DNA of 64,000 nt from Stegostoma tigrinum (taxonomy: Eukaryota), in contig NC_081369.1 in the NCBI RefSeq assembly GCF_030684315.1, positions 9,338,035-9,402,034 of the forward strand, given 5' to 3'. The notes under the pieces were generated by a model that saw only the letters and a list, made by a program, of their open reading frames with translations, was not told the DNA's origin and ran no database searches. The position numbers and the translations under genes were made by a program. Below, piece after piece: positions 26,471 through 54,649 of the stretch. Every line of letters starts with the position of its first letter. Position 1 is the first letter of the stretch.

Positions 26471-26480
26471 GTTTGTCACG

Positions 26481-29600: not shown

Positions 29601-30244
29601 ATTGGGTATATTATTATGAAACATTGGATTTGCAAGAAAGTGCAAAAATTAAGAGAAATATTCGAGAATGTGCCCAATTGTAGATAAACAAGGGAAAGTG
29701 GACTACTGACACTGTCCACGTGGAAACAATATAAATGAGTAAAAAACGTATACGCGCAAACGTCATTCTATTGTTGTCGATATTTTCTGATCAATATGTT
29801 AATGAATGATATTACACAACCTCTTTAGCAGGAGGGACTTGACGCCAAACATCTAGCCCAGTAGCAGCAATACCGACATTTCTCCACAGGAGATTTTGGC
29901 TTTATTTCTGTGTTGTGTCATGTCAACTCAGGTTTGTGAATAGTGGGTGATAACATTCAACAGAGATATAAGACATTACATTGATGTCATTACATGGAAC
30001 GTTATCTACAGTAAAACGAAAATGCATTCAAGTATTTGTTTTATGTTCCGCTAAAGGTTTTTATGAATGAAAACTTTCTCACAAAATCTACTGCTATAAT
30101 TTTTATATGAACTGAGTCAATATATTTCTCTGATTGTGGTTTCGCAATACTATGGTATTATCTGGTTTGTACAAAGTTCTGAATTCAACAAACACAGAAG
30201 CTATGCTACCTGCTAAAAATCAGCATGCTACCTACTGAAAATCA

Positions 30245-30606
30245 GGGTAGCTGATGGCCTGGTGGAATTATCATCAGACTGTTAATCTAGAGACCCAAAC
30301 CATGTTCGGGGGACCTGGGTTCGAATTTCCCCACGTCAGATGGTGGAATTTGAACTCGATACGTACTTGGAGTTACGAATCTAATGGCTATGAGTACATT
30401 GTCGATGGTGAGTTGAAAAATCCTTCTGGTTCACTGATGCCCCTTAGGCAATGAAACTACCGTCCTTACCTGGTCTAGTGTACATGTAACTACAGCCCCA
30501 CAGCAATGTGGCTGACTCTTAACTGCCCTCTGGACAATTAGGAATGCGTAATAGATGCTGACCTAGCCAGTGATTCTCGCATCGTGTGAATTAATAATAA
30601 TAATAA
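30245..30606 (+). mobile_element. tRNA-derived DeuSINE (SacSINE1-like)
   Basis: A/B-box head (tggcctggtgg...gggttcgaat), Deu-domain-like core ccgtccttacctggtct...cccacagcaatgtggctgactcttaactgccctctg, and an (AAT)n tail. Confidence 0.85.
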
Positions 30607-32429
30607 ATCCTGCTTTTTTCCCCTTGGTAAGTGATATTCTCAGGTCAGTGATTTGATTTCTGTTGTATTTTGCAGTCTTGTGACTGCCAGTCTTGTTTAT
30701 ATTACTGATATGAGATGGTTGAAGGTTCAGTCTATGGAACAATCCAAGAATCTCCTGTTTCCGATTCCCCCCCCCCCCCCACCTTTTTGCTAATTTTAAC
30801 CGTTTACCTAACTCTTATGTATTTATGTGGAATCATAAAATATCAAACCTTTTCTGGGATCTGACACTTTTCAAAGAATCATCCAAATGATTCCTCAAAC
30901 AGCGCAGTTTTCTAATTTTGAATTTATAACTAATTCTTCACGTATTCTGCTTGCAATAGCGATTACACTTCGGTATTCCTTTGCCCTTTAATTAAAGAAT
31001 CAATTGAATCGACTTAAGTTATGTGCCATTTTAAACTATTGTTAATTCAAAGTTATTATGATACAAAGTAAAACGAAATTTCTTTACTGGAATCTATGAA
31101 GCTATGATTTGATTGGGCACAGCTCTCTGCCAAAGGTACCGTGTTTTATTTTGCCACAATAGATTTTCCTGTAGCCATCTATTGTTTCAATATCAAAGCG
31201 ATACAAATCATCGTGACAATGCATGAACAGAAGTGGTGGTCTACGTTAAAGACCACTGGACCACTGGACATATTGACCACATCAATATGTGGGTGAAATG
31301 TTAGCTTGACAGAATGCTGGATATTTTTTAACTTGATTGACGTAATCATCCGTAAAACCAATATCGACAATGGTCAGATGCTAATCAAGCTTGCTAGTTG
31401 CTAACCAACCAACACATTTAATGCTAAGTTTAATTTTGTTTATAGCAGGATACTGACAATATGTCTGGTGACGAATAGTAACAGCTTTGCCTCTGCATGT
31501 TTTGGTACTATATCTACACACACTGTTCAGATCCTACAAATATGCCATTTCATACTTTTCTGTCTAAATTTTCAAAATGTTTTCTTGATATTGCCGAAAA
31601 TGTGAGTGCTTCAGCTTATATGATATCGATTTCCATTTTAGACAATCCATTTCCTTGTTCAAAACATTTTGACTGCTTGTGGAGAATTGGTCTGTTTTCT
31701 TATCCCAATCCCAATATTCCTCTGTGCATAGCGTATTTTAAATTTAACCATGTTTGGGTTTGGTTCGTTATATAAATTGCAGCCTCTCTAATATTCGGCG
31801 CTGAGGACAAGTCAGCACATTTCCTTTACTCAACAAGAAATTTTAGAGTAAGACAAAGTACTGACATAAAGAGGGAACGTTATTGACAAGTATCGTATTG
31901 TTAACAACAAACCTATCCTTAATAAATCTATTACAGGAAGATCAACCTCTTCTGAGGAGAAAAAAGATGAAAAATCAGAAGTCTTTTAACTTTAACACAC
32001 TTTGTTCAAGTGACAGTTTAATGAAAAAAAGTAAGAAATCACAAGTTATCCCATTTACTGTTCTGATTCAGTAATTAATCTACACACACCGAAGCTGCTC
32101 GAACTGACTGTCTTCCTTGAACCACTGCAATTGGCTGATTTCTCTTTACGATGATAATGACCTCGATTTCAAGAGAATCCTCTTTAGGAACCACTTCGCA
32201 GCGATAAAAATGACTTTTGATGGTCACCAACTCTCACACATATTTGGGAAGAGTTTCAAAGAAGGCAAGTGTAATAATTGGCTATTGCATTGAACGTTTT
32301 AGGAGGCTTACACTCAAATCTGAATATGAGTTTGCTACTTTAACATATTGAGGCAGTTCTTTGCAAGTTCGATTAACGAGAGGACACCTTATGAAAACAT
32401 TAAGAAAGCGTTTCTTTGGGAACTTCACG

Positions 32430-32740
32430 GTACAACGCGAATGCGATGTTTGACTTCGCAAGAGAATTAGGACCAGAGGAGCATAATTTCAGGGTACAGG
32501 AATGGTCATTTAAGACACACATTAGATTTTTTTTCATCCAGAGGGCAGTGAATCTCTGGAATTCTGTGCCACAGAGCATTACTGAGGCAAACTGAAGGCT
32601 GACACAGGCAGGTATCTGGACCAAGGGCTAAAGGAACATGGCAAAAGGAGAACTCGAGGATTAACAGGCCAACAATGATCTAATTGATTGGAATGATAGA
32701 GTCAATGGGTTGAATGGCTTAATTCGGCTGTTATGATTTA
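32430..32740 (+). mobile_element. Old CR1 3' fragment
   Basis: accagaggagcataatttcagg...ttcatccagagggcagtgaatctctggaattctgtgccacagag is a CR1 ORF2 end pattern, followed by a tail. Confidence 0.75.
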
Positions 32741-33569
32741 TAATTGATTAAGTTTTGAGCAGGAGGAATAGACAGACATGAGCATTTCATGAGAGAAAAA
32801 GCAAATACTGACATTACATGATGTAATAAAAATACACTTTAGCTATAGAAATTGGAGAAAATTACAGTCATGAAGTCCATCAAGGAAATTTTAAAGTTTC
32901 TATTGATTCTCCTTATGGAATAGGAAGAAAAGAATGTGAAGGTATTGATATGTCAATTGACATATCATTGGGTGAAATGAAGTGGCAAATGCCACTTGGA
33001 TATTGCCTCTGCAGAACAGATGGCAGATAGAATATTTGCAATTTTGTATCCCCATCGAAGAGGTTTATATGAATTGTGATGCAATGAGCAAGCTTGTATC
33101 GAGTGCATGCGTCTTAGTTCCTGAAGCATGCTGGCAAAAATATCGAAATCCAAAGACCGAAAATGTCAGGGATCAACATGAAACGACCTAGACACAATAG
33201 CCGACATGATGCTGTCACCATCTCAATATGGCATAAAAACAATTAATGTACAGCAGCATTGACTGGATGAGTATGGAAGCGATGTATCTCCAAATAAAAC
33301 ACGAGACAAAGCATGTCCAGCAGGTGGTGCTAAGTGCTTTATATCTGGCCATTTGGAACAATCTAAGAAATATCATGAAGAACAACAACTGCAAAACCTC
33401 AGTGAAGAAAGGCCAGGGGAAAGAAAATCCAGTTTAATTGAAATGAATAAAAACAAATATCATTCCGAGGAATTACTGAGACAGGATAAGGAGAAAGACA
33501 ACTTTCCTAGGTAAAGTCAAACAGAATGAAACCAGAAAATAGATCATCATCTTAAAGTCGCAGTTTAAT

Positions 33570-33873
33570 TTTAGATTACCTACAGAGTGGAAACAGGCCC
33601 TTCGGCCCAACAAGTCCACACCGCCCCTTGGAACATCCCACCCAGACTCATCCCCCTATAACTCACACACTCCTGAACACTATTAGCAGGGCGAATCCAC
33701 CTAGCCTGTACATCTTTGGACTGTGGGAGGAAACCGGAGCACCCGTAGGAAGCCCACGCAGACACTAGGAGAATGTGCAAACTCCACACAGACGGTTACC
33801 CGAGGCTGGAATCGAACCCGGGTCCCTGGTGCTGTGAGGCTGCAGTGCTCACCACTGAGCTACCTTGCCGCCC
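33570..33873 (-). mobile_element. HE1-type V-SINE, full length
   Basis: Minus strand tRNA head GGGCGGCAAGGTAGCTCAGTGG...GGGTTCGATTCC, V-SINE core GTGTGGAGTTTGCACATTCTCC...GGGTGCTCCGGTTTCCTCCCAC, and a CR1-derived tail ending (AATCT)n. Confidence 0.93.
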
Positions 33874-33917
33874 CAAAACGAGACTCCTCGAAGCTCAGCC
33901 CTAACCAGGGCAGTAAC

Positions 33918-33988
33918 TGGCTGCACCCGGAGTTGAACTCGGATCGCAGAGCTCAGAAGCCAGCGTGCTGACCACTATACCACAGCTG
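33918..33988 (-). pseudogene. tRNA-Gln(CTG)-like pseudogene or isolated SINE head
   Basis: TGGTATAGTGGTCAGCACGCTGGCTTCTGAGCTCTGCGATCCGAGTTCAACTCCGGGTGCAGCCA aligns without gaps to vertebrate tRNA-Gln(CTG). The anticodon and T stems contain mismatches. Confidence 0.7.
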
Positions 33989-34481
33989 CCAGATTCTGTC
34001 GTACAGGCAAGCACTTTACCATCGCTGATGTGTGTGACAGTCAGGCAAATTAATACAAAGATAACAAGATAGACGTGTTGAAAATATAAATAGAAATAAC
34101 TGAACATGAGTTAGAAGCCAATTCAGGGACATCTTTGCAGAGTGGCCACGTTTGGTAACTCCATATTCAAGGGTTTTCAGTCTCCTGGAAGAATAGGCAA
34201 AATTGTAAAGGAGATGAAGTAGTTTTGTTCACGAAGGCGAGTATCAGTGTACAACCTGGAGTGGATTCAGTTCAAGTGAAAATGCAAAATAGCACGGCAA
34301 AGACTTCATGGCTGGGGCTTTTCTACATGCCACTGATTTGCTTCACTATTGGGCATTTTGCGCTGTAAGTACAGTAGACTAGATTCGGAGAAGCGGTGCT
34401 TCACTTGGAAGGTGTGTCAGAGACCTTGGATATTGAGGAGGAAGGAAGTAAATGGTCAGGCATTACACCTTCTGTGCACAG

Positions 34482-34573
34482 GATGAAGGGTCTAGGCCCG
34501 AAACGTCAGCTTTTGTGCTCCTGAGATGCTGCTTGGCCTGCTGTGTTCATCCAGCTCCACACTTTGTTATCTG
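34482..34573 (+). mobile_element. Penelope pLTR fragment with 5'-clipped hammerhead motif
   Basis: gatgaagggtctaggcccgaaacgtcagcttttgtgctcctgagatgctgcttggcctgctgtgttcatccagc. Confidence 0.85.
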
Positions 34574-34704
34574 GCACGTAAGTAAGCGACTGGTTCTCGC
34601 ATCCTGTTGAACGGAGTGGAAATGGCAGTTTACAGACCTTTGGGTGTGGGTTCTGGTGATCACAATGTCGTCGCCTCTACATTGCAGAGATTTTTTAATG
34701 ATTG

Positions 34705-34803
34705 AGATTAGATTAGATTCCCTACAGTGTGGAAACAGGCCCTTCGGGCCAACAAGTCCACACTGCCGGTTGAAGCATCCCACCCAGACCCATCCCCCAT
34801 AAC
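34705..34803 (-). mobile_element. HE1 SINE 3' fragment
   Basis: (GATTA)n tail and ccctacagtgtggaaacaggcccttcgg..caacaagtccacac, as at 33570 and 61795. Confidence 0.85.
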
Positions 34804-35899
34804 CTGAAGCGCAGACTGAGGAATTGATTTGAAGAACATGTGCGTTTTGTCTGCAAAAATGATCTTGAACTTGCTGTTGCCGATCACTTCAATACGCGAG
34901 TGTTCGCTTGCGAGTATCTTTGAATCGGGCTTGCTGCAGAGCTCCAGCGAAGTTATTGCAAGCTGGATGAGTAACATCTCATTTTCTGTCTTGGGACACT
35001 GGAGCCCTCAGAACTCAATATAGACTTCAATCCTTTAAAAGGATAAGTACCTTCTCCCCTCTCCTTACCCCAAACTGCAAACAACATGAGCTGCTATCAT
35101 AACCAACCCATTGTAAGCTACCAATGGTCCAGGTCATGAGGAAGAAGCTGATTTTGGAAGAAATGCTGACAAGAGTGTACAAAGTTATTAGAAGTTTTAG
35201 TAAAATTGAAACAAAAGAATCACAATGCTCTGTAAAATAGTCTAACGCACCTGCTTGCATTCTGCCAGGAATTTCCACATTGCTTGATTACAATGAAGAT
35301 TGTTTTTCTGAGCAGGATATTTTGTGATCTAGGTAGTTTAAAATCAATATTGTCAGGGGCATTGATGCACACATGTAGAGCAGATGAGCCGCGAAGCTGG
35401 CCTGCCTGGCTTACAGTTAAGGAAGCTATTGTGCAACACTAGATCGCTACCCCATGTCCTCCATTGCATCTACACAAATTAAGTGCACGTGTTTTTATGG
35501 TTGCATAATTTAGCAAATATTTCGAATTAATGATTCTCCAAAGGGAGAGTCACCCTTTATTTGGACGGAGTGCTTAGCACCACTTCTCATAAGGAAAACA
35601 TGCAGGTTGCGCCCTCGAGATGCAACGTACCGCTGCATTTTGTCTTTTTTTTCTTTTTCACTATTACTTCATCGGAATTTGTTGCATTTCTCCGCTCAAG
35701 TCAACGTGTTTTCTGCTCAGTTTTCAGTCTGTCACATCAAACTCAAATGACTCCATTCGAAGGCGCATGTCTGTTATAAATCCCTATGACAGTGGCTGGT
35801 AATATAATCACCATTTCTCGATGGATCCTGCCCTTCGGCATTTCAAACTATTGATAATGCTCTGCAGCTTCTCCTCTATTATCCATTACAATCAGGTTG

Positions 35900-36170
35900 C
35901 ATTCATTGTCAGGCCGTGGAACAATATCAGAAAGTATAGTTCTGAGTGAAGTTTGTTCACCCAGACATTGTGAGCCTGTGGAATTTTCTGTAACAGAAAG
36001 CAGTTGAATGTTTTCATGAAGGCGTTAGATCCCCTTTTCTGAGGGATAAAGAGGTCAAAGAGTGTGGGACGAAACAGGAACAGGGTATGAATTGGATCAT
36101 CGGCCACGATCATATTGGATGGAAGAGCAGGCTTGCAGAGCCAAATGGCCTCAACCCTGCTCCTATCTGT
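35900..36170 (+). mobile_element. Old CR1 3' fragment
   Basis: gtggaattttctg..acagaaagcagttga...ggaagagcaggcttgcagagccaaatggcct..ccctgctcctat tail pattern. Confidence 0.7.
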
Positions 36171-37577
36171 ACCAACCTGGGTTTCGAAAAGGCAGAACAT
36201 ATCTCATTTATATGATTATGACTTTACTAAAGAATGGGCAATGTTGATGAGGACAATGCGAGTGTTTTGGTGTCTGTGTAATTTCTAAACATTTCAAACA
36301 CTCTTACAAAATAGGGCAGATAACAGGCCCCTCATTCATGGAATCAAAGCAAAATGGTCGTAGTCGCAGCAATGTCAGATACCAGAGAGAATCGCAAGCA
36401 TACAATGTCAAATTAAAGGAACACTTTCAAATGGAGTTCTGCAATTGGGAGGACCTGAGACTATCTGCGCACTGCTTGGTGAAATTGGCAATGTTCAGAG
36501 AGCAAATGATTAGTGTGATATCCAATTTCAACGGCGTTACTATAATGATAATAAGTGTACCAAGGCAAGGATATTGTGGCGCAGAATTTGCAAGAATGAT
36601 AAAAAGAATTGAAATTCTTGGCGTTTTGTGGAACGATTTAAATTCCAACTTCAAGCTGCACTCAATTGATTATTTTAGAAGTGCATTCATTGTCATTAAA
36701 AAGAAACGCGGCAATCGACGTGCGCTGCCAAAATCTGCGAAAAGCAATCAGCTAAAAATATCAGGGAGTCTCTGTTTTTATGATGATCGGAGCATAAATA
36801 CTAGAAAGAACGCCAATAATTCCACAACTCTACTTTCATAAAATGAACTCAATGGATTGCTTAACATTTGTTCGACCTTGCACAAAGTTTAAAGTTGCAT
36901 TGGAAATCCGGCATCCCTGCCGTTACAGCGTGCCAACGTGTCTGTCCTGGTTTTTGTGTTGCTTTACAGAACTGTACCTTCCACCCAGAAAATTTTAGCA
37001 CTGAGGAAAAATTCCAACTCACTGAGAGATTGCTTCCCAAAAATTTGCCTGATTCCATGGATGGGAATGAGTGGTGAAGCCCCGTCTATTGCCGTTCAAG
37101 ACGAAAAAGTTGAGAATTCAAACCACGAGAGTTCTGAAGGGAATGCATAATGGCCAACTGAGCCCATTGACAGAAACTCCAAGCATCAAAGCCTCCGATT
37201 ATCGAAAACGTGAAAACGATGCTACGTGATCAACATCTGTGGTCAAGACCTGGATGTCCTCATTAAAACAGTGATGGAGCCAGACCTACCTGCGTTTGGA
37301 AAGAATATGGGCATTAGCAGCGTTAGTTAACTCTGCATTTGAAAATCAAATGTCTTTTGCTCTTTTGCATTACTTGATAAACACGATTTCAGACGTGACA
37401 TACACACAGAAACTGCAAAGTAGCATTGACCATACGAGACTCAAATTACCGACCGCATTCACAGGATGTTAAACATCATTGCCACGTATCTGATACAGTG
37501 AGCAAACTGGAAACCCGTCTTAGCAGTTACTAAAGCGCGGAGCTGCACAGCGTGGTTAGAACAAACCATCATTAATA

Positions 37578-37632
37578 ATGCCAGCGAGGATGATTTTTTT
37601 CTGCCTGACACTACTCGAATTTATTCTTGCTG
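37578..37632 (+). CDS. Exon 1: signal peptide MPARMIFFCLTLLEFILA
   Basis: ATG at 37578, hydrophobic core, phase-1 donor G|GTactt, and a 166-nt intron to the V exon. Confidence 0.85.
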
Positions 37633-40600
37633 GTACTTTGATTTTTGATTCACAGAACTGCTTTAATTCATTAAAGACTTTCGATGCAGCTCCTCCTTCC
37701 ATTAAATAATCTTAATTCATCTATCTGGTTAAGACCTTAACTCTCCTATCTTTATGCCGAATACGACAGTTATCTATGTTTTATTTTGTTTCTGACAGCT
37801 GCGGACCACACTTGTTTTAGGGTTACTCAAACGCCTAAAAGAGCAGCTGCGAACAGACGGGAAGACATTACCTTCTACTGTACATTCTCCATTTGTCAGC
37901 AAAGTTCAAAGCCAAATGTAATTTGGTGGAAGCAGGTTGGGAATGAACGTGTTCAGATTGAAGCCAGTGGTAGACAACAATTTGGATTTGAAAATGAAGC
38001 AACAGCGTTCCTTAGCTTGCTGCGCGTTGATATCCAAGATTCTGGACATTATCACTGCACGGTGAATTACCAAGGAATCGGTCAAAGAAGCGGAACCCCG
38101 TCCCAGCTATTTGTGCGTGGTAAGTGAGAGCGACACTGACTGAAATAATTTGAAATAACAAGATTTTTCCTGATCGCTGATTTCACCAATATTGGCGGTT
38201 AAATCGTGTCCAGTTATCATTTATACAGGAACCTACCCTTGATATTTCAGATCCGTTGAAAAAAAGTAAAATTAGATGATCAATATCACCGGTAGAAAAC
38301 TGAAGCTTTTATAAATATTAACAATTTACGCTGTAATTCTAAAGACAGCCTATACACTATGTGCTTTTTGCCGATATACAAAACTTCCGATGTACATAGG
38401 CAACAAGAAACCGCTTTGTCAGACTATTCGTCCACAATTCTTAGTCCCTGGTATGTTATTGAAGTCGTGTGACTGCCCGACAATTATTTTTTCTGAGATT
38501 GAAGATTCTAGAAATTAATTCTCACATTAATTTCACGTCATAATTTGAAAATCAGCATGAACTTATTTCATGAGTGAAGGAATCGATGCAAAAGAAACAC
38601 AGTTTGACAGATACAAGTAGGTTGAATCACTGACCTAGAATAAATAAAACAACGCAGAGAATCTGTAGCAATAACAAATTTGCTGGAAAAGCTCAGCAGG
38701 CCTGGCAGCATCTGTGGAGGACAAAACAGGGTTAACGTTTCGGGTCCGGTGACCCTTCCTCAGAACTTAAGGTTCAACTGATTCAATGTGTTTTGTCAAT
38801 TGAAATGCCTCGTTTTTGAAATCCGACTGATGCAATGATCTTGGGGTAATCGGCAATCTGCAACTTCACCGCCATTATGCACTTGAGCTTAAAAAAAACA
38901 CCAGGGCAGACGAGCACAATTTGCTTTGTTCCTTTCTTGTGCGCAAGCTCAATTTAATTAATTTATTCAAATATGCGACATAAGCATTGCTAAGCATTTT
39001 GTAGTTTTGTTCTGCCGAGGAAGGCCAGGTATTGGATTTGATAATTCAAGTAAAAATGGATAAAAGCCGCTGCCTGGAGAGCTATTTGTTTCATTAACTG
39101 AATGCTTGTGCATAAAATTAAGTTGAGAAGAAACTGCACTTCTGAGCATTGTAATTATAGGAAAGCATAGCGTCTGTAAATCAGCCTCAAATTTAACAAT
39201 TTCTGATTTGTTCCAGTAACTTGGCTTTGTTCAATCTCTGCTTGCAGTTGCTCCAGTCCCACTGAAAATTACGCCCAAGTTACATGAAGAAAATTCACTT
39301 GTGTCTTTGACCCTTCTGTGTGAAACAGCTGCATTTTATCCGGAGGATTTCACCCTCGCCTGGTATAAAAACGGCACGAAAACTACAGTCGGTATAAATA
39401 CGAGCAAGGTGCAGAACAGTGAGGGACTGTATGAAGTATCCAGTTCTTTGTTTGATCCTCATCCTCCCTCAAGTAATCTCAAGTATACCTGTGAAATATC
39501 TCACATCTCCCTCAAGACGCCTGCTGTTGTAACCCACAGAATTTCCACATTTGGCGGATTCCAAAAAGGCGAGTTAGTTGCTGTCAGTTTTGTTACGAAA
39601 TGCATCGTAGAATAGTGCAACGTGTGGGCGTAATCCGCAGTGGTTTCATGGAGATGTATTTAAATGTATTATACTAAGTTGACATCTCTGTTGTCAGAGC
39701 ATCAAAACTTATTTGGTATTCTTTTTCTTTGACTTTTGAAATAGTAATTATGTTCAGAATTGAGCTGATCTATCCATTTGTTTCTTCCCATCATTTTGTC
39801 CACGTTCACCTTCTTTGCCCAAGCTATGCCTACCTCTTTGTAGGTTACGTGGCACAATCCCTCTTCTGTACCTACACTGGTCCTAAACATCACTTTTTCC
39901 TCTGTTACATTGATGACTGCATTGCCATCTCCTTGTGCTCCCATGAGGAGCTCGAGCAGTTCATCCACTTCACCCACAGACTCCCACAGCTACCTAGAAT
40001 ACACCTCCTCCCACCCACCTTCCTGCAAAAATGCCATTGCCTCCTCCCAATTCCTTTGTCTCTGCCACATCTGCTCCGAGGATGAGGCATTCCACTCCCG
40101 TACATCTCTGATGTCCTCATTTTTCAAGGACCGCAACTTCCCTGCTCAATGGTTGAGAATGCCCTCGACGGTGTCTCCCGCATTTCCCACAACTCATCCC
40201 TCACACATCCTCCCTGCAAAAACAACCAAAACAGAATCCCCCTCATCCTCATGTACCACCCCACCAACCTCCTGATCCAATGCATCATCTTCCGACACTT
40301 CCGCCATCTGCAATCCGACCCCACCCTTAAAGACGTTTTTCCCACCCTCATCTGCTTTTTGGAGGGACCACTCTCTCCATGAATCCCTCGTCCGCTCCAC
40401 ACTCTCCTCCAGCGCTACCACACCGACACTTTTCCCTGCGACCACAGGAAGTGCTACACCTGCCCCTACACCTCCCCCTTCACCCTCATCTCAGGTCCCA
40501 AGAAGACTATCCACATCAAGCAGATGTTCACCTGCACATCTGCTAATGTGGTATACTGATCCACTGTTCCTGTTGTTGCCTCATCTACATCGGGGAAACC

Positions 40601-43600
40601 ACGCGGAGGCTTGGGGACCACTTTGCAGAACACCCATTCTCAGTTCGCACTAAACAACTGCACCTCCCAGTTGCGAATCTTTTCAATTTCCACTCCCGTT
40701 CCGCAGGTGACATGTCCATCCTGTGCCTCCTGCAGTGCCGCAACGATGCTACCTGAAGGTTGCAGGAACAGCGTCCTATATTTCACTTGGGAACCCTGCA
40801 GCCCAATGGTATCAATGTGGACTTCACAGGCTTCAAAATCTCCCTCCCCCACTGCATCCCCAAACCAGTCACTTTCTGGGTTACCCCAATCCAGAACTTG
40901 AAGTGGACAGTTGAGAAAATGCTTGTGATATCATTCCTCTAAATTTAAGAAAGCATAATTAGTAAGTAAGAAAGCTCAAGAACAACAGTATTTTGATTCA
41001 TGGGGAATTGACTTATCTCATATTCCTACCTTTCCGAAACAGTCCTTTGTGTTCCATAAATTGACAATCTATTCCAGAGATTGATTCAGAATTTGCCATG
41101 TTGGATCAAGAATTCACTTCGATATTTAACAGAAATAATCTTTGGCAGTTCAGCTTTTTCATTGTCCTTGAATAGCGCTGTGCAGTTGAAAATATCATCA
41201 CATTTTAAGCAAAGAACTAAAGTGACAATATTTTTAATTTAATGATCACATGCAAATAATGTCTTCTTTATCCTGCAGACAGTATCAACAATTCACTGGT
41301 CATCTGGTCTTCAGTTCGTTATGTGATTTTCTCGGCGCTTGTTGTAATTCTGTTCGTGTTTGGGACTGCAAAGTACTTGAGGATATCAGAAGTAAGGTCG
41401 ACTATCAAAGCCTGCTTTTCGCACAGGGCCTGGGTTAATTTGCCATTTCTGGAAAACAAGCAGGATACTTATTAGGGATAATTCGAATTGGTTGAAGACT
41501 GAAAAATGCAATCATTTTGTTCTTTTTTCCCCCGCAAACGTGGATTGCTCCAAAGCCACTTAAAAACACAAGAAGGTTCTTGGAAACATGAGTGAACCAT
41601 TCAGCCCCTTTGGGCCTGTTCTGCCATTCAAAGAGATCATGGCTGATGAATGGCTTAACTCTATATCCTTGTCCCTAAATACTTTGCTTAACAAAAATAA
41701 ATCGATCCCAGATTTAAAATTAAAATTAACTTCTATTTGTTGAAAAGTCTTGCAAACATGTGCATAGAAGAGCTTCCTCACATCTTTCTTGAATGATGTT
41801 GTTGCAAGTTTAAGAGTATGACCACCAGTTCTAGAATCCACAACCAGCGGGAGTAGGAGATGTTACTGACAAAGTGTGAAGAGGGTCTTCGGTCCGCCTC
41901 CTCCTCTCTCCCTATTTATTTCAGAACCCTCGCCCTATCCCCCTCTCTGATGAAGGGTCTAGGCCCGAAACATCAGCTTTTGTGCTCCTGAGATGCTGCT
42001 TGGCCTGCTGTGCTCATCCAGCTTCACACTTTGTTATTTGGCTTCTCCAGCATCTGCAGTTCCCATTATCACTGATACGAAATTACTGACACTCTCTTTT
42101 GCTATTAATGTCGTAAAGCCTTCAATTAGATCATCTCTCAACCTTCTAAATTGGAGAGAAAATAGTCTTAGTTTGTATAATCCCTCCATGTAATTAAATC
42201 CCTAAAGTCCACAATTATCATTCTGGTAATTGTACATCATACTCCTTCCAAGGTCAATGCACCTTTCCTGTGGTATGCTGCTCAGAACCGTTCACAGCTC
42301 ACCAAAATGTTTTCAAATGTAAACAATGCTCACGTGTGTTAATTTCCAAAGGCACATTTCAGTTTTCAACATGAGAAATGAAATTTATCACAATAAATAT
42401 GAAGTAGGTAATTCGATGCTTCTGTCAAGTAATGATTGCTCCTTGAAAGAATGGAGGATTAATAGCAGATTCTGATGTTGCAACCGTCTGATCTCTGCGA
42501 GCAACATAATCAAATGTATTCTGCCTCAACGGAACATTCACATCCTTTCTCTAATACTTTGATTCAGAAAAATGCGCTCATTTTCTGCATGGAAACTGAG
42601 TCAATATTTTCATCACTCAATGCAATTATATTTCATTGGTTTGCAGGTAAAGAAGAATGCACAAGGCAATCAGACTGCCATGTCAATGGGGTAAGTTCAT
42701 ATCATCATCATGCTTGGAGTTTGAAATGTTTGGATCAATGGCAATAATGGAAGAAATATACATTAATAATGACAGAACATTTTATATCTATTTATTGAAA
42801 GACTATTCATCTGGTATGTGTGTGTTTCAGAGCCAGGTTTGAAGCGCAATTTGTACAACTTGTATTACTGATGAAGGTTGGCAAGTGGATCTTCTTTAAA
42901 AAAAACCGTAATCATATCTTTGAGAATGTTGCAAGGTTGAGTCACGTTTTAGGGTTGAGAACAAATTTACTGTCTAAACCCATTGCATCTAACACTTAAC
43001 ATTATGTTTCAGCATGAATATGAGGAAGTTTGAATTGTTGCATTGAACACTGAGATTAACATTGTCTTCGTGCAGATATATCTATAATATGGATTCTGCA
43101 AGGGATGTCGAGTCTTGGTTAAATATGCTTAGTCCTTGATGTAGAAAATCTTCGAGACAATGAAAAGGACACTTATTGAAGTGTTGTTCTTGTCCTCACA
43201 GGAAGCCATGGCGGAGGTTTCCTGCAATAGACTTAGGCAAAAACAGGAGAACTCCTAGACATACGTTTGAAATAGAGAAAAACATGCCTATTGAGGTAGG
43301 GCGGAGTGGGAGAACACAAAATCAGGATAAAATTGTGATTCAAGATAATAAAATGTGAGGCTGGATGAACACAGCAGGCCAAGCAGCATCTCAGGAGCAC
43401 AAAAGCTAATAAAATGTGAGGCTGGATGAACACAGCAGGCCAAGCAGCATCTCAGGAGCACAAAAGCTACTTGGCCTGCTGTGTTCATCCAGCCTCACAT
43501 TTTATTATCTTGGATTCTCCAGCATCTGCAGTTCCCATTATCTCTAAAATTGTGATTCAGCCTGACAATGAAGGCATTTGCTTCTATGGACATTAGCCAA

Positions 43601-43856
43601 ATGTCATTTTGAAGCCGATTTTTGTGTCCTTCTGATTAGTGCTTTGCAGAAAGTTTATAAAAAAGGCCAATTAATAACATTTCCAAATAATATCTTTACA
43701 GCTCTCCATGTTGCTATCGGCAGTAAGATGACATACAGTCCTCTAAAGTTCTCTGTTTCTGCGAAGAAGGCACAGAGATTGCTTGAGCTGCAGACTGAAA
43801 AACAAAACAAAGTAACAGAAGATATCCATGCACAAGCAAGAAATAACAAGGCTTAA
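37578..43856 (+). CDS. Non-rearranging IgSF type I membrane receptor: leader-VJ-C1-TM-cytoplasmic tail (SIRP/B7-H6/tapasin/VJC1-like architecture); cytoplasmic exon usage unresolved
   Basis: Four phase-compatible exons (37578-37632, 37799-38119, 39248-39568, 41279-41391) join into one open frame of signal peptide, V, C1 and TM. Short candidate exons follow, then a terminal exon with two AATAAA signals. Confidence 0.88.
37799..38119 (+). CDS. Exon 2: Ig V-set domain with in-exon J-like G strand
   Basis: Acceptor ttttgtttctgacAG and donor G|GTaagt, 321 nt, phase 1-1. Motifs are RVTQTP, ITFYC, VIWWKQ, DIQDSGHYHC and SGTPSQLFVR. Confidence 0.95.
38672..38766 (-). mobile_element. Penelope-type terminal repeat (second family) with an intact minimal hammerhead motif, in intron 2
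   Basis: Minus strand GTT-CTGAGGA-A-GGGTC-ACCG-GACCC-GAAACGT-T-AAC. Confidence 0.8.
39248..39568 (+). CDS. Exon 3: Ig C1-set domain
   Basis: Acceptor tctctgcttgcAG, 321 nt. Motifs are LTLLCETAAFYPEDFTLAWYKNG, NSEGLYEVSSSL and YTCEISHISL. It ends at a non-canonical donor AAG|GCgagt in phase 1. N-glycosylation sequons NGT and NTS are present. Confidence 0.95.
39808..40863 (+). mobile_element. Penelope-like retroelement fragment (RT C-terminus and GIY-YIG endonuclease) in intron 3
   Basis: PSYAYLFVGYV..., YIDD, SSHP..CKNAI..SQFL....ICS, then FTCTSANVVY...C....YIGET. Frameshifted and internally deleted. Confidence 0.92.
41279..41391 (+). CDS. Exon 4: stalk and transmembrane helix with Arg (DSINNSLVIWSSVRYVIFSALVVILFVFGTAKYLRISE)
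   Basis: Acceptor tcttctttatcctgcAG. Phase-1 entry gives an uninterrupted hydrophobic segment followed by K/R. Donor GAA|GTaagg is phase 0. This frame is not in the ORF track. Confidence 0.88.
41575..42305 (-). mobile_element. Old CR1 3' fragment interrupted by a + strand Penelope pLTR (41890-42078)
   Basis: DSRTGGHTLKL....FKKDVRKLF in ORF 41560-41841. The insert carries ctgatgaagggtctaggcccgaaac...ccagcatctgcagttcccattatc. Confidence 0.85.
42647..42690 (+). CDS. Candidate 44-nt cytoplasmic exon (VKKNAQGNQTAMSM if entered in phase 0)
   Basis: Acceptor tttcattggtttgcAG and consensus donor GGG|GTaagt. Confidence 0.6.
43343..43544. mobile_element. Young Penelope pLTR-derived insertion (two tandem inverted fragments plus the 3' end) with a 15-bp TSD
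   Basis: TAAAATTGTGATTCA occurs at both 43328-43342 and 43545-43559. Inside are a ~60-bp tandem duplication and an inverted repeat. Confidence 0.92.
43702..43856 (+). CDS. Candidate terminal cytoplasmic exon with an ITIM-like motif (MTYSPL)
   Basis: Acceptor atatctttacAG. The phase-1 frame reads LHVAIGSKMTYSPLKFS...TEDIHAQARNNKA*. Poly(A) signals lie about 90-110 nt downstream. Confidence 0.55.
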
Positions 43857-43948
43857 ATATTTCAAGGCAAAAGATTATTCTTGGACTTGGACTGATCACA
43901 ATCGTTTGCACTTAGAGCTTCAGGCCTGCACAGTCTCACCTCTATGCG

Positions 43949-43970
43949 AATAAAGCATTACCGCAATAAA
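43949..43970 (+). terminator. Tandem polyadenylation signals
   Basis: AATAAA at 43949-43954 and 43965-43970, just after the candidate last exon. Confidence 0.55.
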
Positions 43971-44094
43971 GCAGATAGACATAGCGAGTACCTATCCTTT
44001 TAATGGCCAATTAATCCCTATTATTGGTTTTTAAGAACACCAACAACCTGCTTTGAAAGTATGTTTGAAAGACACTTTGCTTGAAGCAGAGTAA

Positions 44095-44560
44095 ATGAGA
44101 ATTGCAGGAGAATCCAAGATAACAAAGCATGAAGCTGGATGAACACAGCAGGCCCAGCAGCATCTCAGGAGCACAAAAGCTGGCATTTTGGGCCTAGACC
44201 CTTCATCAGAGAGGGGGATGGGGAGAGGGTTAGGGTTAGAGTTAAACCCTAATCCTATCGCCTGTCCCCGTCCCCCTCTCTGAAGAAGGGTCTAGGCCTG
44301 AAACGTCAGCTTTTGTGCTCCTAAGATGCTGCTGGGCCTGCTGTGTTCATCCAGCTTCACACTTTGTTATCTTGGATTCTCCAGCATCTGCAGTTCTCAT
44401 TATCTCTGATCACAATTTTAACCGCACTGTGAAGCCTCTTCCAGGGATGCCTAACCTGAAGACGTTACCTTCCTCTCTCTGGACCAACCTTAGGGAATCT
44501 CTCTCCAACTGCAACTCTCTTGGCCACCTCTCTTCTCCTCTATCCATCTTCAGAAGTTGC
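44095..44560 (+). mobile_element. Penelope-like element 5' end: inverted pLTR, pLTR and probable start of the ORF
   Basis: 44105-44226 is the reverse complement of 44262-44385. There are two hammerhead-like cores. It continues into MPNLKTLPSSLWTNLRESLSNCNS, which I recall as the N-terminal region of this family. Confidence 0.8.
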
Positions 44561-47500
44561 TTGAAGCAATTGGCTGCCTCTCAGAGCTTCTTGCTTGCTC
44601 TTATTGCATTTGTCTAATCAGAATCTAGCTGCTTGCTGTCTGCATCCATGCCTTGCGTTGATTTGTACTGTGCTTGCAGAGCCACACAGCTACCTTGCAA
44701 GTGAATGCTTCATAGTCAATGAGGTACGCAACCTGTAATACGCAATGTGTGACATGAGTGTCGCAGCTGCGACTTGTGTCAGCAGTTTATGCACCAAACA
44801 CACATCATGTGTAGCCAACAGGCAGCCATGTCTCAAAGTCAAAGGGAAAGAGACGGGTGCGACATCCTTGGAGGTACCTATCAATTACAGTGACCCAGGA
44901 GAGTAATGAACAGCTGTCTCCCATCCCAGTCCAACCATCTGCGGAAGGTCAGGCGTTTGGCCAGGGTGGTGTTGGTCAGGGTCTGCAATCCAGGGACTGG
45001 GTTATGGTCAGTCCAGTGCCTCCATAGCACTTAGGACAGTGGTAAGTGCAAAGGACAGAAGGGAAGGCAGTGATATGAGAGGAGGACTTAATCCCCAGTC
45101 AGGATCACACTGGCATTTAGGGGTGAGAGGTGGGGAGTGAGAGACGGGTCTATGACCACTCCTGGCAAGGTCACCTCATATGGCAATGGTGTGGTGATGA
45201 TCGTAATTGGCACAAGCAGACTCGAGAAGATGGGCTGCTTGTGGACCTCTGCAGGTGTAAAGCCTATGGGGTTCATGAGATGGGCAAGCAGTGAGAGAAT
45301 GCAGACGTTCAGAGGCTCACAAACGTTCAAATGGAATCTAGAAGCCATTGGCCTAGATTGATCATTGACAGCTTCCATCCTAGTGGAATTTTAATGTGTG
45401 CAATGTGAAGCCAAATGGCAGAAAATTATACTTGGATGAAGTTCGTAAGTTTATTGAACTGTGAAGGAAGGGGCTGCAGGACTCACCAGTTTGAGGCTTT
45501 TTAATTGGAAACTATATTACTTGCAGACCAATGAATGTTACAAGGCAGAGATTTGCAAACTCCTTGATCCTGGGCAATAGTCATGCACTGATCATACGTG
45601 TGAACTGTATGTCACTGTCTTGGATATGAATGATTAGCTTATTTATGCCAGCACCTTTGCACTCAGGTGCGAGGGTGTTAATATCGTAACATTTCACCTC
45701 GGGAGACGACGGTATCAGCAGAACCCTGTGCTTAATTCTCAACTCTTCATTTTGTCTCAATAGTTTCCCTTTGTCTTTCTGCTCCTCCGACAGCTTGTCT
45801 GTGCTGTCCTTGGTAACATAATTGGGTGGAGCGTACCTGCTTGGCAATGGATTCCATTGACAATGACGATTTGGGTCAGGCAATCCTGAGAGCATTTATA
45901 TCTGATATGAATACCATTTCCATTGTATTGTTTGTACCTTGAGTAACTCAGTAGCACTGTAACAATCATATAAATTGGAAAAATTGTTCATGGCATTTCA
46001 GTTACACATCTAAAAGGCACATATCGTTGAAACGTCAACATTGATGTTAGTCATTTTTGAATCTTACGTCCCTGCTCATAGTTTTAATGAATAGTGAACT
46101 TCAATTTCGTGAAGCATTTGCATGTCCCAAAAGGCTTGAAACCATCTGATGGTATTTAACACATCCACTCACTTGCCACTTCGTGATGTGTTGCAACAAT
46201 TTCGTCATAGCAAATTTTTATTCGCAACAATTAGATCATTCTGTCTCTGATATTCTTCACTGAATTACCATATCTATGTAGGTTTGTAAGTTTCTTCTGT
46301 AGGTCTTTATGTGACCGAGTACGCTGCCTCATTCATGATTGGCAGAGTCTATGTGAACTCTCGAATAACGATAACATAATTAGCAAAAACATCTGGAAAA
46401 TAAATAATTGTCAAAGCTCAGTGGCAATAAAAATACAGTTGGTTGAATGCTGTCATAAGATAATTGATGTTTCCTTACATATATTCATAACATTTTCCAA
46501 CTTCTTATTTGATTCTCTGAGATCCATTCAAGCTCATTCTCATACAACTAAGGCCACTAATTTTGGCCTTTATCGTACTGAATATCTTCTCCAGCATCAA
46601 GTTTCCTCTGTTGCTGAACCATCATCTGTGATTTAATTCACCTGTGCTCAACGATTCCAGTACACACATAGCTGAACTCCCATATTTTATCTTCTGTAAA
46701 CTGCAGCTAAACCTTTGTTTTTAATGTTTTAACAAATATGGGAGGTATGCTGCTAGATATTTTGGCTCCCAGTCAAGTGTAATATTAATTTTACAATTCC
46801 TATCATCGTTAAAAACTGCCATTTAATTGCCTCTCCCCATCTCTCTAATTGCTCTACCACTGGCAGCTATCCAAAAATAGTCTCAGCATCTAAGTTATGG
46901 AAACATCCTTACATCTCTCCACTCTTATCATTGCGTTAATGCGTAAATGCTTTTTTAAAGGTATCCATTTCAACGAGTGTTTGGCAGTGTAACCTTACAC
47001 ACCCTGATTTGTTCAATCAATGCTTCGTTTTGTGTTCATTTGATCTGTTTTGGGAGGCTTAAACATAGGTTTGTCTTCAGATATGCTTTCTTTCCACAGC
47101 TCTGAAAGGTCAACCGTGTGAAACCTGAATGGCTCACAAAATAAACAACCTCTTCAAAGAGAGGCACGTGTGCTTACCGCTAAACTACTGCTGACCATGT
47201 ATTCTCCTTATGGGTAACAGAAGCCCATTCTTAAGGTAATTTGGTCAACCAATTGAATTTGCGACAGCACAAGTTCGCTGTAAAGTGTGGACATTTAATT
47301 TACTGACACCATTATTTTTCGATTATGAAAATTTATTCTTATTTTGTCAATATAACCTCTGGAGTTAAAGAGTCAACCATTATTAAAGTTATGAACTTTA
47401 GTGTATATCCGCACTGTAAACAGTGAAAATACAGCAAAGAAAAAACACTTGTACTCCCAACCATTACTTCTGACTAATCTACCTCAACTGTTCGAATAAT

Positions 47501-48675
47501 CAATTTAGACACTGGTTTATTGCTTCAACAAAAGACTTCCCGATCTATTAACAACATAATAACCACAATTGAGCGAAACTTAGCAACAAAATAATTCAAT
47601 CTGTCTCTTCTACAAACCGAAAACCCTTTGTTTTTAGCACCATTCATACAAAGGGCAAACAGACAAACAAGCACAGCTAAGGGACAAATACAATCTATAA
47701 GCAAAACTAGCGAGATTGCTTCAGCGATTTCCGTGATGTGTTGTTCCCTGAGCATAGGTGATGTTTTCTTATTTATTTTCTGAACGCGCTGATCAAGGTC
47801 AGCTTTCAGTTTAATCAGATAAAGGCAGTAAAACTTTATACCTGAGTTCAGAGGAAGAGTCACTCGCTCCCGAATATTAACTCTGATTTCTCTCCACAGT
47901 TGCTGCCACACCTGCCAAGCTTTTCGCCAATTTCTCCTATTGTCTCATAATTTAAACTTAGTTTTCTATCCTGCAAGCGTTCACGAACTGCTCATTTGAG
48001 GTGAGGCAGCGAAGTTTTTTTAAAAAATGTCTTCATTCTGAAACATCAACGGTAAGATTCCTTTTCGCAGAAATATGAACAGAAGCCCAGAATCCAATTG
48101 AAACTCTGTCCATTCCTTGACTGGCTGACAGGCTTTTGCACGAGGCCCCAGACTCCATTCAATATCTAACATGTTTTGAAAACAGGGTCTTTACCAGGCC
48201 TATTGGAACCAGTAGTGATCGAGTTGATAGTCACCTTCGGCGGACTGTTTAAGCATAATGCTCCTCCCCGCTCATAAAAAAACTGCAACTCTAAAGTAAA
48301 AACAACACAAATGGTCAGCTGATCCCAAGTCTTTCTAATCTGTCGAGTGAAAGACTGTTTATCAGTTAATGAATTAGGTAAAGTAATGCAAGCTATCTTT
48401 AATTTTGGCTATTTATTGAGAAGTCTCACAGACAATCATATACTGAAGGAATTATTGTAACTTTGTTGCATACAGCAACCGAAATAACACTCCTCAAATA
48501 AGCCATTTATACCTCACAGTGTAGTTCTCCAGACATTTGCTACTGAAGAATTCTAGAGTTAAAATTTTACAGCGTTCTATTTTTCAAAGTGAATGATTGA
48601 TCTCAGGTATGATTCCAATCAATGGCGTCTGGCCCTTGGTGGGTCCAGTTTCGATTCTGATATACAGTAGTTACT

Positions 48676-49710
48676 CAATAGACAATAGGTGCTGGAGTAG
48701 GTCATTCGACCCTTCGAGCCAGCACCACCATTCATTATGATCATGGCTGATCATCCACTATCGGGATCCTGTTCCTGCCTTATCCCCATAACCATTGATT
48801 CCACTATCTTTAAGAGCTCTATCCATCACTTTCTTGAAAGTATCCAGAGACTTGGCCTCCACTGCCTTCTGGGGCAGAGCACTCCACATATCCACCACTC
48901 TCTGGGTGAAGAAGTTTTTCCTCAACTCTTGTTCTAAATAGCTTACCCCTTATTCTTAAACTGTGTCCTCTGGTTCTGGACTCACCCAGCAGCGGAAATA
49001 TACTTCCTGCCTCCAGAGTGTCCAATCCCTTAATAATCTTATATGTCTCACGCAGATCCCCTCCCATCCTTCTAAACTCAAGGGTATACAAGCCCAGTCG
49101 CTCCGATCTTTCAACCTATGACCGCCCTCCCATTCCGGGAATTGACCTCGTGAACCTATGCTGCACTCCCTCAATAGCAAGAATGTCCTTCCTCAAATTT
49201 GGAGACCAAAACTGCACACGATACTCCAGATGCGGTCTCACCAGGGCCCTGTACAGCTGCAGAAGGACCTCTTTGTTCCTATACTCAATTCCCCTTGTTA
49301 TGAAGGCCAGCATGCTCTTAGCTTTCTTCACTGCCTGCTGTACCTGCATGTTTGCTTTCATTGAATGATGTACAAGAAAACCCAGATCTCGTTGTACTTC
49401 CCCTTTATCTAATTTGATCCCATTTAGATAGTAATCTGCCTCCCTGTTGTTGCCACCAAAGCGGATAACCACACATTTATCCACATTAAACTGCATCTGC
49501 CATGCATCCGTCCACTCACCTAGCCTGTCCAAGTCACCCTGTATTCTCATAACATCCTCTTTACATTTCACACTGCCGCCCAGCTTTGTGTTATCAGAAA
49601 ATTTGCTAATGTTACTTTTAATGCCTTCGTCTCTATCATTAATGTATATTGTAAACAGCTGCGGTTCCAGCGCCGAACCTTGTGGTACCCCACTGGTCAC
49701 CGCCTGCCAT
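48676..49710 (-). mobile_element. CR1 LINE 3' half of ORF2 and tail
   Basis: VTSGVPQGSALEPQLFTIYIND..SKFSDNTKLGG...LYRALVRPHLEY.VQFWSP (49116-49793) and the ORF2 end (48819-49091). Confidence 0.95.
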
Positions 49711-50984
49711 TGCGTTCTCCAGAGTTTTGTTACTGAAGAATTCGGGAGTTGAAATCTTAGAGAATTCTGCTTTTCAAAGTTATGGTGTGACATTATTGAT
49801 GATCATTTAGACTCTTTCATTGGCAATATTGACGACTGCTGTGGAGCCATCAAGCCTGCAGCTTGCCTCCTTAGCCGAAGTAGCTTCCCTGTTCCCCGTT
49901 ACATTTGCCACGGATTGCCTGCTTGAAACACAACTTCCTGCAATCAGCTGCTTAAATTCTTCCACGAGAAAATAATTTCTCCTGGTGGTGTAATACCACC
50001 AGTTGTGAAGCCGGTATTAAAGTGATATTGTTATGTAAATTCGACTTCTCTTTCTCCAATGCATAGCTAATTGCTTTCAATTCCCGATTTGTCCTTGTCC
50101 CTTAACGATTATATTCCGGGTTATTGTCAGTTCTTTCAACCTATGAACACTAATGAACGTTCTGAAGTTTACATTATTACAATGACATTTCACTGAAGAT
50201 GGAAAACTTAGAAACGTTTTCGACTTTAAATACCGAAAGTGTAAAGTGTGGGGAAAAAGCCAAAACGTTAGGTCTGTGATAATTTGAGAGGCAGTGGAGA
50301 TTAAACAGTAAAAAGAGAGTTGGCCTTGCAAGGCCAGTCGGTCGCATTAAAGTGGTATAGTTGGATGTATAAGAACATGAGCAACTGCAGTCTTATCAGG
50401 AAAACCTGAGTGGAATATCGGGAAAATGGGTCAGTTGAAAAGATTGTGTAGAAGGGCTGTTAATGGGAGACCAATGAATATTTACTTTACAAACCAAAAG
50501 AAAGGTGTGGACGACCACAACAGCAACAACAAGCTTGCCATGTGAAAGGAAATGAATTGGGAGTGCGATTTGGAGATTATCTTTTGCTCCGTGTTTCCCA
50601 TTTTTATGAGGGAACATTGCCAAGCTGCTGTGCAGCTCTGTAAGGTGGCGGCAACAGACATCAAGGCGTCATTTACTTTTGCTTTCCACTGAGTGACAGT
50701 CATGGCCACTGTGATACCTTTAAATTGGCCCGTGTTTTAATCTCTTACCTCTACCCTCTGTTGTGTCACTTACTTGCCGCTAAACCTGTCCTCCAATCAG
50801 TCAGGGCCAACTTCAGGGGACATTGTGCCTAAAGATGCCTTCCTTCTCAGCATGCCGTTTGGACCCAGAAAGTGTTCCGATGCAAATGCAAGTGAAAATC
50901 CTCAATGTATAATATCTGTTCACCATTTGTCATTTTCTTATTTCCTATGATAACATTTTAAACTGTGTGATAGCACTACGTTAT

Positions 50985-51200
50985 TAAATAACTTCACAGA
51001 TGCCGGTACCCCGTCACCAAGTCACCCTTATTCAAAAGTGCATAATACTTGACACAGACCCGGCTCCCTGACAGCCAGCTCTCAGAGTCCACATAATATC
51101 CGACACTCCATTCTGCTCTGCTAGCTCAGAGCCAGTCGATAGAGTTAAGAAAATTTGAGTCCATTTTTTGCTCTTTTTATGGTTTCCTACATTACCACAG
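50985..51200 (-). mobile_element. Gypsy solo LTR (related to the LTR at 10213-10446)
   Basis: aaataac..cacaga..c.gta.ccc.tcac.a.gtcacc.tt.att...gacac.ga...ctccc...agc.ctcagagt is shared with the 10.2 kb LTR. Confidence 0.7.
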
Positions 51201-51239
51201 AACCTAAAGGGGGCTAGCAGTACTACTTATATTTCCGCA

Positions 51240-51376
51240 CCGCCCCCGAAATCATACGTATCTCTGCGTGTATGGACAGTGGCGCAGGGAAAAGTGAAAA
51301 CATGGCGCAGCAACTTTGTTACGCTGCCCATCACAAGGAAAACCCCCATTGGCTTGTGAAACGGTAACAAGGAAGT
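51240..51376. promoter_or_regulatory. Candidate immune-responsive enhancer/promoter (GC box, ISRE/IRF, NF-kB, CCAAT, ETS)
   Basis: CCGCCCC at 51240, GAAAAGTGAAA at 51289-51299, GGAAAACCCC at 51337-51346 (GGGGTTTTCC on -), ATTGG at 51348-51352 and AGGAAGT at 51370-51376. Locally CpG-rich. Confidence 0.45.
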
Positions 51377-51529
51377 CCTAATAAGGGCAATGCATGCATC
51401 AAAATGTGAAGGGGAGAAGAGCAGAATTATATCCAAATTGTTTTAGAGGGAGAATTAAAGTAGTGTATCCCCAGCAGTGTTCATCTCTCCATAAAGGCAT
51501 GGAGAGCATTGGTAGACAATATATTTCCT

Positions 51530-54500: not shown

Positions 54501-54630
54501 AGCCGATCATGCTGAATCTTTCTCAACAAATTTCAACCGACCAGATTTGGGGCTGAGCGTTTTATGTCAATCACTGGTAACTTAAGCAATCAGTTCTCAT
54601 AGGACAATGGAGCTGACTTGTACCCTGGAT
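51530..54630 (-). mobile_element. Decayed Ty3/Gypsy retrotransposon (RT, RNase H, integrase, PPT, 3' LTR)
   Basis: RT LDMSHTYL. RNase H LLSSSEVLAHYDP...NASTY. Integrase RYYVWW and VLVTDNGPSSTSKE...NGIKHIRTA. A polypurine tract (51761-51780) abuts the LTR start TGTAAC at 51760. Confidence 0.92.
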
Positions 54631-54649
54631 CTGTAAATTATCTTGTCAG

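Follow-up and report, generated by a model that had tools for sequence, protein, structure and literature searches.

A putative activating receptor gene of probable hybrid origin in an elasmobranch V-C1 family of the zebra shark

The stretch of zebra shark (Stegostoma tigrinum) DNA analysed here comprises 64,000 nucleotides (NCBI RefSeq assembly GCF_030684315.1, contig NC_081369.1, positions 9,338,035 to 9,402,034, forward strand). It is called the window below, and positions are counted from its first letter. At 37578..43970 it holds a gene with a variable-type (V) and a C1-set immunoglobulin (Ig) domain. We consider it likely that this gene encodes an activating receptor within a paired family of elasmobranchs, and that it arose when unequal crossover joined a gene with immunoreceptor tyrosine-based inhibitory motifs (ITIMs) to a gene with an arginine in its transmembrane (TM) segment. 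What the DNA itself shows is the arrangement of the exons, the arginine, the disappearance of the ITIM tyrosines, a six-copy array and a mosaic pattern of identity, and from these we infer the mechanism. A first-pass annotation of the same DNA had proposed a non-rearranging VJ-C1 membrane gene, with the architecture suggested for the ancestor of Ig and T-cell receptor (TCR) genes before the RAG invasion. That reading is partly supported overall; it noted neither the TM arginine nor that the ITIM tail is dead and that the gene is a probable hybrid from a tandem array.

Exon structure and loss of the ITIM tail

The gene is genuine and its position agrees with the first-pass annotation; it has seven coding exons on the forward strand. 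The leader is split, and its first exon (37578-37632, 55 nt) ends in phase 1 and encodes an N-terminus matching RefSeq XP_059507816.1 (P0003). The V exon (37799-38119, 321 nt) includes the G strand and runs straight into a GTAAGT donor. The C1-set exon (39248-39568, 321 nt) ends on a GC donor (AAG/GCGAGT). Stalk and TM segment share one exon (41279-41391, 113 nt), in which the codon of Arg246 (41317-41319) lies near the outer TM end. Three tail exons follow, at 42647-42690 (44 nt; homologous to that of an ITIM paralogue, with the frame shifted), at 43202-43295 (94 nt) and at 43702-43731, the last being the coding part only and ending with the stop. Two AATAAA signals stand at 43949 and 43965 (span 43949..43970).

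Much of the earlier structural description held. The layout of leader, V, C1, TM and cytoplasmic exons was confirmed throughout, with the tail in three exons, and no recombination signal sequence (RSS) was found in a scan of 37501-41400 (0 sites; shuffle mean 0.6). The phase-1 introns that it described are the first three; the intron between TM and first tail exon is in phase 0, the next in phase 2 and the last in phase 0. The phases after the TM exon are shifted because this exon lacks one of the 114 nt that it has in the nearest paralogues. The V domain does carry a J-like strand of its own in the form of the G strand, but the GxG motif is broken by a proline (G-T-P) in this copy. Across the family, G-x-G-[ST]-x-[LV]-x-V is intact in 17 of the 26 V exons examined. 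The C1 assignment was borne out by Pfam (C1-set, E=1.8e-10, above the curated cut-off). For the first domain Pfam returned I-set (4.6e-8) and V-set (6.3e-5), the V-set score falling below the V-set cut-off; judged by its motifs and its structural model, the domain is of V type.

The predicted protein has 325 residues, with Arg246 at the outer TM end and no tyrosine past residue 265; its tail exons and their splicing were modelled after the homologous ITIM paralogue. We also considered other last exons, at 42831 and 43013, and discarded them because the exons at 43202 and 43702 match those of the paralogue. An AlphaFold model shows two Ig domains, with a mean predicted local distance difference test score of 83.7. 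A homodimer prediction for residues 20-230, run without an alignment, scored 0.00 and is uninformative either way. The GC donor after C1 is present in all six copies of the array described below and in two further paralogues; a GT stands there in locus L037. RefSeq XP_059507816.1, named MHC class II beta-like (MHC, major histocompatibility complex), reads through this donor, giving 247 residues and no TM segment. Upstream of the gene, a 196-aa frame at 36251-36838 has no match in Pfam.

The ITIM paralogue is copy 6 of the array, in which the window gene is copy 3. Copy 6 encodes P0004 and carries VQYSAV, VTYTTL and TEYAAL on exons of its own. Aligned with it, the window tail has lost three ancestral ITIM tyrosines. 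An 8-nt deletion in the second tail exon takes out the first tyrosine, and a 1-nt deletion in the third tail exon puts the stop ahead of the second motif, of which an out-of-frame relic (MTYSPL) persists at 43728-43745; the third tyrosine, 3′ of 43745, is mutated. By this alignment the tail is descended from an ITIM tail. The neighbouring arginine gene has an exon-2 deletion at the matching place and a TM exon of 114 nt; therefore, the loss of 1 nt from the TM exon in copies 1-5 arose later. Contigs from two public runs of genomic DNA, which belong to a single study and possibly to the assembly's own animal, cover all three tail indels without gaps, and these are therefore not assembly errors.

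Probable hybrid origin in a six-copy array and paired organisation

V spacing and unit identity define a tandem segmental duplication of six units of about 78 kb at 9.22-9.61 Mb on the family's contig (C19), and the window (1..64000) lies wholly inside it. The V exons are 76.7-78.2 kb apart, and blocks of 8-10 kb from the units are 98.9-99.85% identical. Copies 1-5 have an arginine TM and a 325-codon frame, and copy 6 is the ITIM gene. Copies 2-5 are mosaics, since 5′ of C1 they resemble copy 6 and not copy 1, whereas 3′ of C1 they resemble copy 1. Over the upstream 10 kb the window is 99.6% identical to copy 2 and 99.4% to copy 6, but just 66-84% identical to copy 1, in patches. Downstream of C1 it matches copy 1 at 94.7-100% and, in the parts that align, copy 6 at 65-81%. 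The exons follow the same course, with nucleotide identities to copies 6 and 1 of 99.1% and 95.9% (V), 99.4% and 98.1% (C1) and 52.7% and 100% (TM).

By windowed identity and informative sites, a tract that is near-identical between copies 1 and 6 (38770..39576, forward strand) appears to hold the crossover. The switch point of copy 3 is probably at 39451-39577, later in C1 than in copies 2, 4 and 5. The mosaic suggests that copies 2-5 were likely made by unequal crossover joining the 5′ half of the ITIM gene to the 3′ half of the arginine gene. The simplest account would be one such crossover within the tract shared by copies 1 and 6, followed by more rounds. We suspected that P0004 itself might be a gene-model chimera, and rejected this because its exons sit in order downstream of copy 6's C1.

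Human FCGR2C has the same type of origin, in modules of about 80 kb (PMC6563257), and LILRA6 and LILRB3 exchange in a similar fashion (PMC3894450). Both are likened to the window gene as activating hybrids with an inhibitory ectodomain that involve unequal crossover and copy-number change. Their domain type is unrelated, and the analogy covers the genomic mechanism only. This route to activating receptors would operate in cartilaginous fish as well.

Outside the array, too, family members have either ITIM-type tails or a TM arginine, the window gene being of the arginine type. In the cluster at 9.18-10.26 Mb, 19 TM exons were located, 8 with arginine and 11 neutral; 8 of the 11 neutral exons have tail exons with tyrosine motifs within 10 kb. 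Members of both types were also found in other sharks and rays. Copy 1 (arginine) and copy 6 (ITIM) are 95.0% identical in V and 98.1% in C1, compared with 52.7% in TM. A second pair has 99.0%, 98.5% and 77.5%, and a third 95.2%, 86.0% and 63.8%. In three pairs of one cluster, the ectodomains are thus far more alike than the TM segments, as in paired ITIM/charged-TM receptors. For its TM, copy 1 has the closest match in the adjacent arginine gene (69.9%), but for V and C1 in copy 6; this difference implies that the ectodomain exons may have been converted. The V codons of copies 1 and 6 show nine non-synonymous and two synonymous differences, too few for any selection to be claimed.

Other features of the array were noted in passing. 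Copies 2-6 carry two extra cysteines in V, at 24 (Trp in copy 1) and at 51, and these could pair in a non-canonical disulfide close to CDR1 (complementarity-determining region 1). A frameshifted V fragment rides as a passenger in both of the ~78-kb units checked (C19:9403452, L184; 9248795, L183). Remnants of reverse transcriptases of the long interspersed nuclear element type, recognised by eye, lie at 14777-16858 (+), 3830-4315 (-), 49119-49802 (-) and about 39850-40850. Window segments 3746-4299 and 16389-16942 are an inverted pair with 94% identity. Intron 3 of the window gene contains a high-copy repeat that is not in the intron of copy 6.

Proposed function

The window protein would stand on the leukocyte surface, with its V domain binding the same ligand as the inhibitory copy 6 or one near it; the ectodomains of copies 3 and 6 differ at three residues (one in V, two in C1). 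Arg246 would pair with an adaptor that has an acidic TM segment and an immunoreceptor tyrosine-based activation motif, most likely FcR-gamma or CD3-zeta and possibly DAP12, and this pairing would set off Syk/ZAP70 signalling. An arginine close to the outer TM end favours FcR-gamma. The zebra shark genome has two TM exons of the zeta/FcR-gamma family with aspartate. NKp30 couples to CD3zeta via TM charge (PMC12272517). In the usual view of such pairs, the activating twin counters pathogens that exploit the inhibitory receptor, and more copies would give a higher dose. Copy 6 and the window gene offer a ready test pair, being three ectodomain residues apart with opposite predicted signalling ends.

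Several observations weigh against this interpretation. The missing base in the TM exon of copies 1-5 could reflect decay instead of adaptation. The membrane form depends on predicted use of the GC donor and on predicted tail exons, and the RefSeq product has no TM segment. Two genes of cluster 1 that belong to the tyrosine-motif lineage have a TM arginine too; therefore, the arginine by itself is no proof of activation. The tail models of arginine genes cover the array copies, and the copy number of the array comes from a single assembly. The choice of adaptor is also uncertain, since medaka NITR9 has a TM arginine and zebrafish Nitr9 signals through Dap12 (PMC2442602).

It could be that the hybrid copies are decaying passengers, or that they yield a soluble V-C1 decoy by read-through of the GC donor. 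For five copies the RefSeq models stop before any TM, the donor is indeed GC, the TM exon lacks 1 nt, stops occur in 11 of the 49 C1 matches on C19, and the frameshifted V fragment recurs in each unit checked. However, the 325-codon frame with its stop in the last exon has been kept in all five arginine copies, and the GC donor, which in other respects fits the consensus, is common to copy 6, where the RefSeq model splices. We therefore consider decay or a decoy role unlikely, and retain the activating hybrid receptor as the better explanation.

A wider proposal is more tentative, and we would place it among the conceivable rather than the probable. The elasmobranch equivalent of KIR and LILR may be this large two-domain VJ-C1 family on the homologue of human 16q. 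Its ITIM members would recognise MHC class I, or some other marker, as self, its arginine members would have been derived from them repeatedly by conversion and unequal crossover, and the five-copy array would be a recent, pathogen-driven amplification. If this were true, the family would be the missing natural killer receptor complex of sharks, made of domains of the antigen-receptor type. The receptors by which sharks tell self from non-self innately are largely unknown, and a mis-annotated family of about 45 genes that appears to predate the shark-ray split supplies candidates.

The family, its relatives and other explanations

About 45 V-C1 genes, all on one chromosome (C19), make up the family; this answers the paralogue count called for by the first-pass annotation. 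In a search of the shark's own genome, 36 of 36 V matches fell on C19, as did 49 of 80 C1 matches, including the top 44. These counts are lower bounds, as six extra V exons surfaced in fetched DNA. The genes form clusters at 2.1-3.0 Mb and 9.18-10.26 Mb, with a single gene at 13.68 Mb. A profile search returned 36 proteins, of which 24 from sharks and rays had E<=3e-63; turtle SIRP-like proteins came next (2e-35), then frog, fish and TAPBPL proteins. Homologues span 14 species (11 sharks and 3 rays), and no chimaera protein was among those returned by the protein searches. Multi-Ig proteins crowded the results of a V-profile search against 1.84 billion representatives, with three single-stretch family members among the 150 matches listed. 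Most homologues are V-C1, and one model has a duplicated C1. The models P0177 (Hemiscyllium) and P0005 (Chiloscyllium) read V-C1-V-C1 or V-C1-C1 and are either true domain duplications or fused gene models. Ray sequences split between two subfamilies in the V tree, which implies that the diversification of the family probably began ahead of the shark-ray split.

The view of a poorly characterised innate-type family of cartilaginous fish was upheld. Automatic names include the expected SIRP-like and tapasin-related-like labels, and NCR3LG1-like and MHC class II-like ones besides. Neither NCR3LG1 nor TAPBPL nor SIRP was found to be a one-to-one orthologue. UrIg, UrIg2, NCR3, PRARP, SIRP and NITR are the genes named as joined VJ genes in PMC12227049, PMC10751288 and PMC11599192. 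The family is not described in the consulted sections of these three papers; the supplements of the first two may list such genes. Nor did we find a description elsewhere in the literature searched, which did not include some key papers and supplements that may mention it.

CBFB, a gene of human 16q22, is also on C19 (12.77-12.82 Mb), at a distance of 2.5 Mb from the 9.18-10.26 Mb cluster. This one marker indicates that C19 holds at least part of the homologue of human 16q22. MHC class I and tapasin are on C44, and PBX paralogues mark C10, C37, C44 and C45; the family's contig is none of these four. The synteny check recommended earlier thus showed no linkage to the MHC or to its PBX-marked paralogons. 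NSFL1C and PSMF1 belong to human 20p13, and UEV markers to human 11p15. In the shark, PSMF1 and NSFL1C are on C23 (the NSFL1C label being an exon-based reading) and UEV genes are on C20. No Ig exon was found in the 200 kb around NSFL1C with a control SIRP V profile that missed the window V too. NCR3-like V exons form clusters of their own on the MHC contig C44.

We built the separate V (64 rows) and C1 (43 rows, 11 left out by thinning) trees that had been recommended. They were run without TCR, VH, PRARP, tetrapod VJC1 or human B7-H6 rows, and outgroup labels were read from contig and motif. The family is a single branch in the V tree (80/91), apart from the NCR3 (96/90) and SIRP (100/98) branches; tapasin, TAPBPL and a frog B7-H6/TAPBPR-like V (P0198) group together away from it (99/92). 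The family, SIRP, NCR3, IgL and NITR form a polytomy. In an approximately unbiased (AU) test on 26 of the 64 V rows, neither family plus SIRP (p-AU 0.147) nor family plus NCR3 (p-AU 0.273) was rejected. In the C1 tree the family again forms a single branch (100/97). A multi-C1 gene on C20 is its sister (95/83), the Ig and UrIg branches lie apart from it, and the deepest split is weak (67/78). In free C1 trees, the sister of the family C1 is neither of the two SIRP C1 domains. Structure comparison was generic, and VIA-align placed B7-H6 on top (Z 16.7, root mean square deviation 3.4, 193 aligned), with IgNAR V, Rst and PD-L2 within 1 Z; its 50 rows lack SIRP and NKp30, and they exclude nothing. 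The top ESM Atlas clusters for P0004 are SIRP-alpha (0.97, 0.96), and PDB sequence and Foldseek matches are mostly titin, contactin and antibodies.

Three other placements of the family or the gene were weighed against these data. The family may be the shark SIRP family, of common ancestry, relocated and with one C1 instead of two, which concerns ancestry and is compatible with the proposed mechanism. The turtle and Atlas matches favour it, no other SIRP-like gene is prominent in the genome (103 of 594 candidates scored), and the V clade with SIRP was not rejected. We nevertheless find it rather doubtful, given the C23 position of the 20p13 markers with no Ig exon found within 200 kb of NSFL1C, the C1 tree, the equally unrejected grouping with NCR3 and the wide score gap below the elasmobranch matches. 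A direct line from the VJ-C1 gene invaded by RAG to the family, as sister of Ig and TCR, is very unlikely. The split leader, single-exon VJ, C1 and TM do fit the two-domain VJ-C1 precursor posited by Flajnik et al. (PMC12227049), and the top Foldseek matches are light chains and TCR chains, in an antibody-rich library. Yet the C1 branch is sister to the C20 gene and not to IgL, IgH or UrIg, the GxG motif is degenerate in this copy, C19 is not PBX-marked, and UrIg and UrIg2 are already published candidates with MHC or Ig/TCR linkage. The evidence does not show the window gene to be a pre-RAG relic, and VJ-C1 architecture by itself does not mark an antigen-receptor ancestor. Least probable of all is a ligand or chaperone of the B7-H6 (NCR3LG1), tapasin or MHC class II kind, as the RefSeq names and the top VIA-align row would have it. 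That row is tied within 1 Z, the tapasin/TAPBPL V group stands apart, and the gene has just two Ig exons and no peptide-binding domain of MHC type; the 11p15 markers are on C20 and the MHC on C44, and ITIM/arginine pairing is a trait of receptors.

From these comparisons the window gene is predicted to work like a SIRP, NITR or LILR paired receptor, whereas membership in SIRP, NCR3, B7-H6, tapasin or Ig/TCR would fail on domain number, linkage or RSS. SIRP, nearest by score and Atlas, likewise has a non-rearranging V with a J-like G strand followed by C1, in ITIM and charged-TM forms. However, SIRP-beta1 uses a lysine with DAP12, and our family has one C1 and not two, an arginine near the outer TM end, about 45 genes and linkage to CBFB. 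The NITRs of bony fish are also a large clustered family with a VJ-like first domain and ITIM versus TM-arginine forms (PMC2442602), but their second domain is I-type and not C1-set, and the lone NITR-like row, on a long branch, falls outside the family. NKp30 and shark NCR3 share the single-exon VJ and a charged TM coupling to CD3zeta/FcR-gamma (PMC12272517); NCR3 is V-only and MHC-linked (C44), unlike the window gene on C19 with its C1 exon. UrIg, UrIg2, PRARP and tetrapod VJC1 are likewise non-rearranging VJ-C1 genes with a split leader (PMC12227049, PMC10751288), but the UrIgs have 3-11 C domains that group apart from the family, are linked to MHC or Ig/TCR and are expressed in liver or gill. 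In rearranging Ig and TCR genes V and J are split by RSSs, whereas the window V has no RSS-like site and ends on a splice donor.

Several other loci of the genome were noted. At C20:34.37-34.48 Mb (L106-L108) there are many tandem C1-like exons, two domains of which are those sister to the family C1. A separate VJ-C1 pair, also non-rearranging, lies at C14:31.98-32.00 and 32.13-32.14 Mb (L101, L102, L152). Its CDR3 reads E-I-P-P-P, which PMC11599192 gives as the motif of CD28H-like V domains in chondrichthyans. In the C1 tree the pair falls with Ig/UrIg domains (90/84), and one of its genes has a TM arginine; it is a better candidate for a relative of antigen receptors than the window gene. 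The C1 exons at C15:76.96-76.98 Mb (L113, L114) group with UrIg domains and are probably UrIg2. Another V-C1 gene, at C19:32485404-32490468 (L181), has a V that looks like the B7-H6/tapasin type and not VJ.

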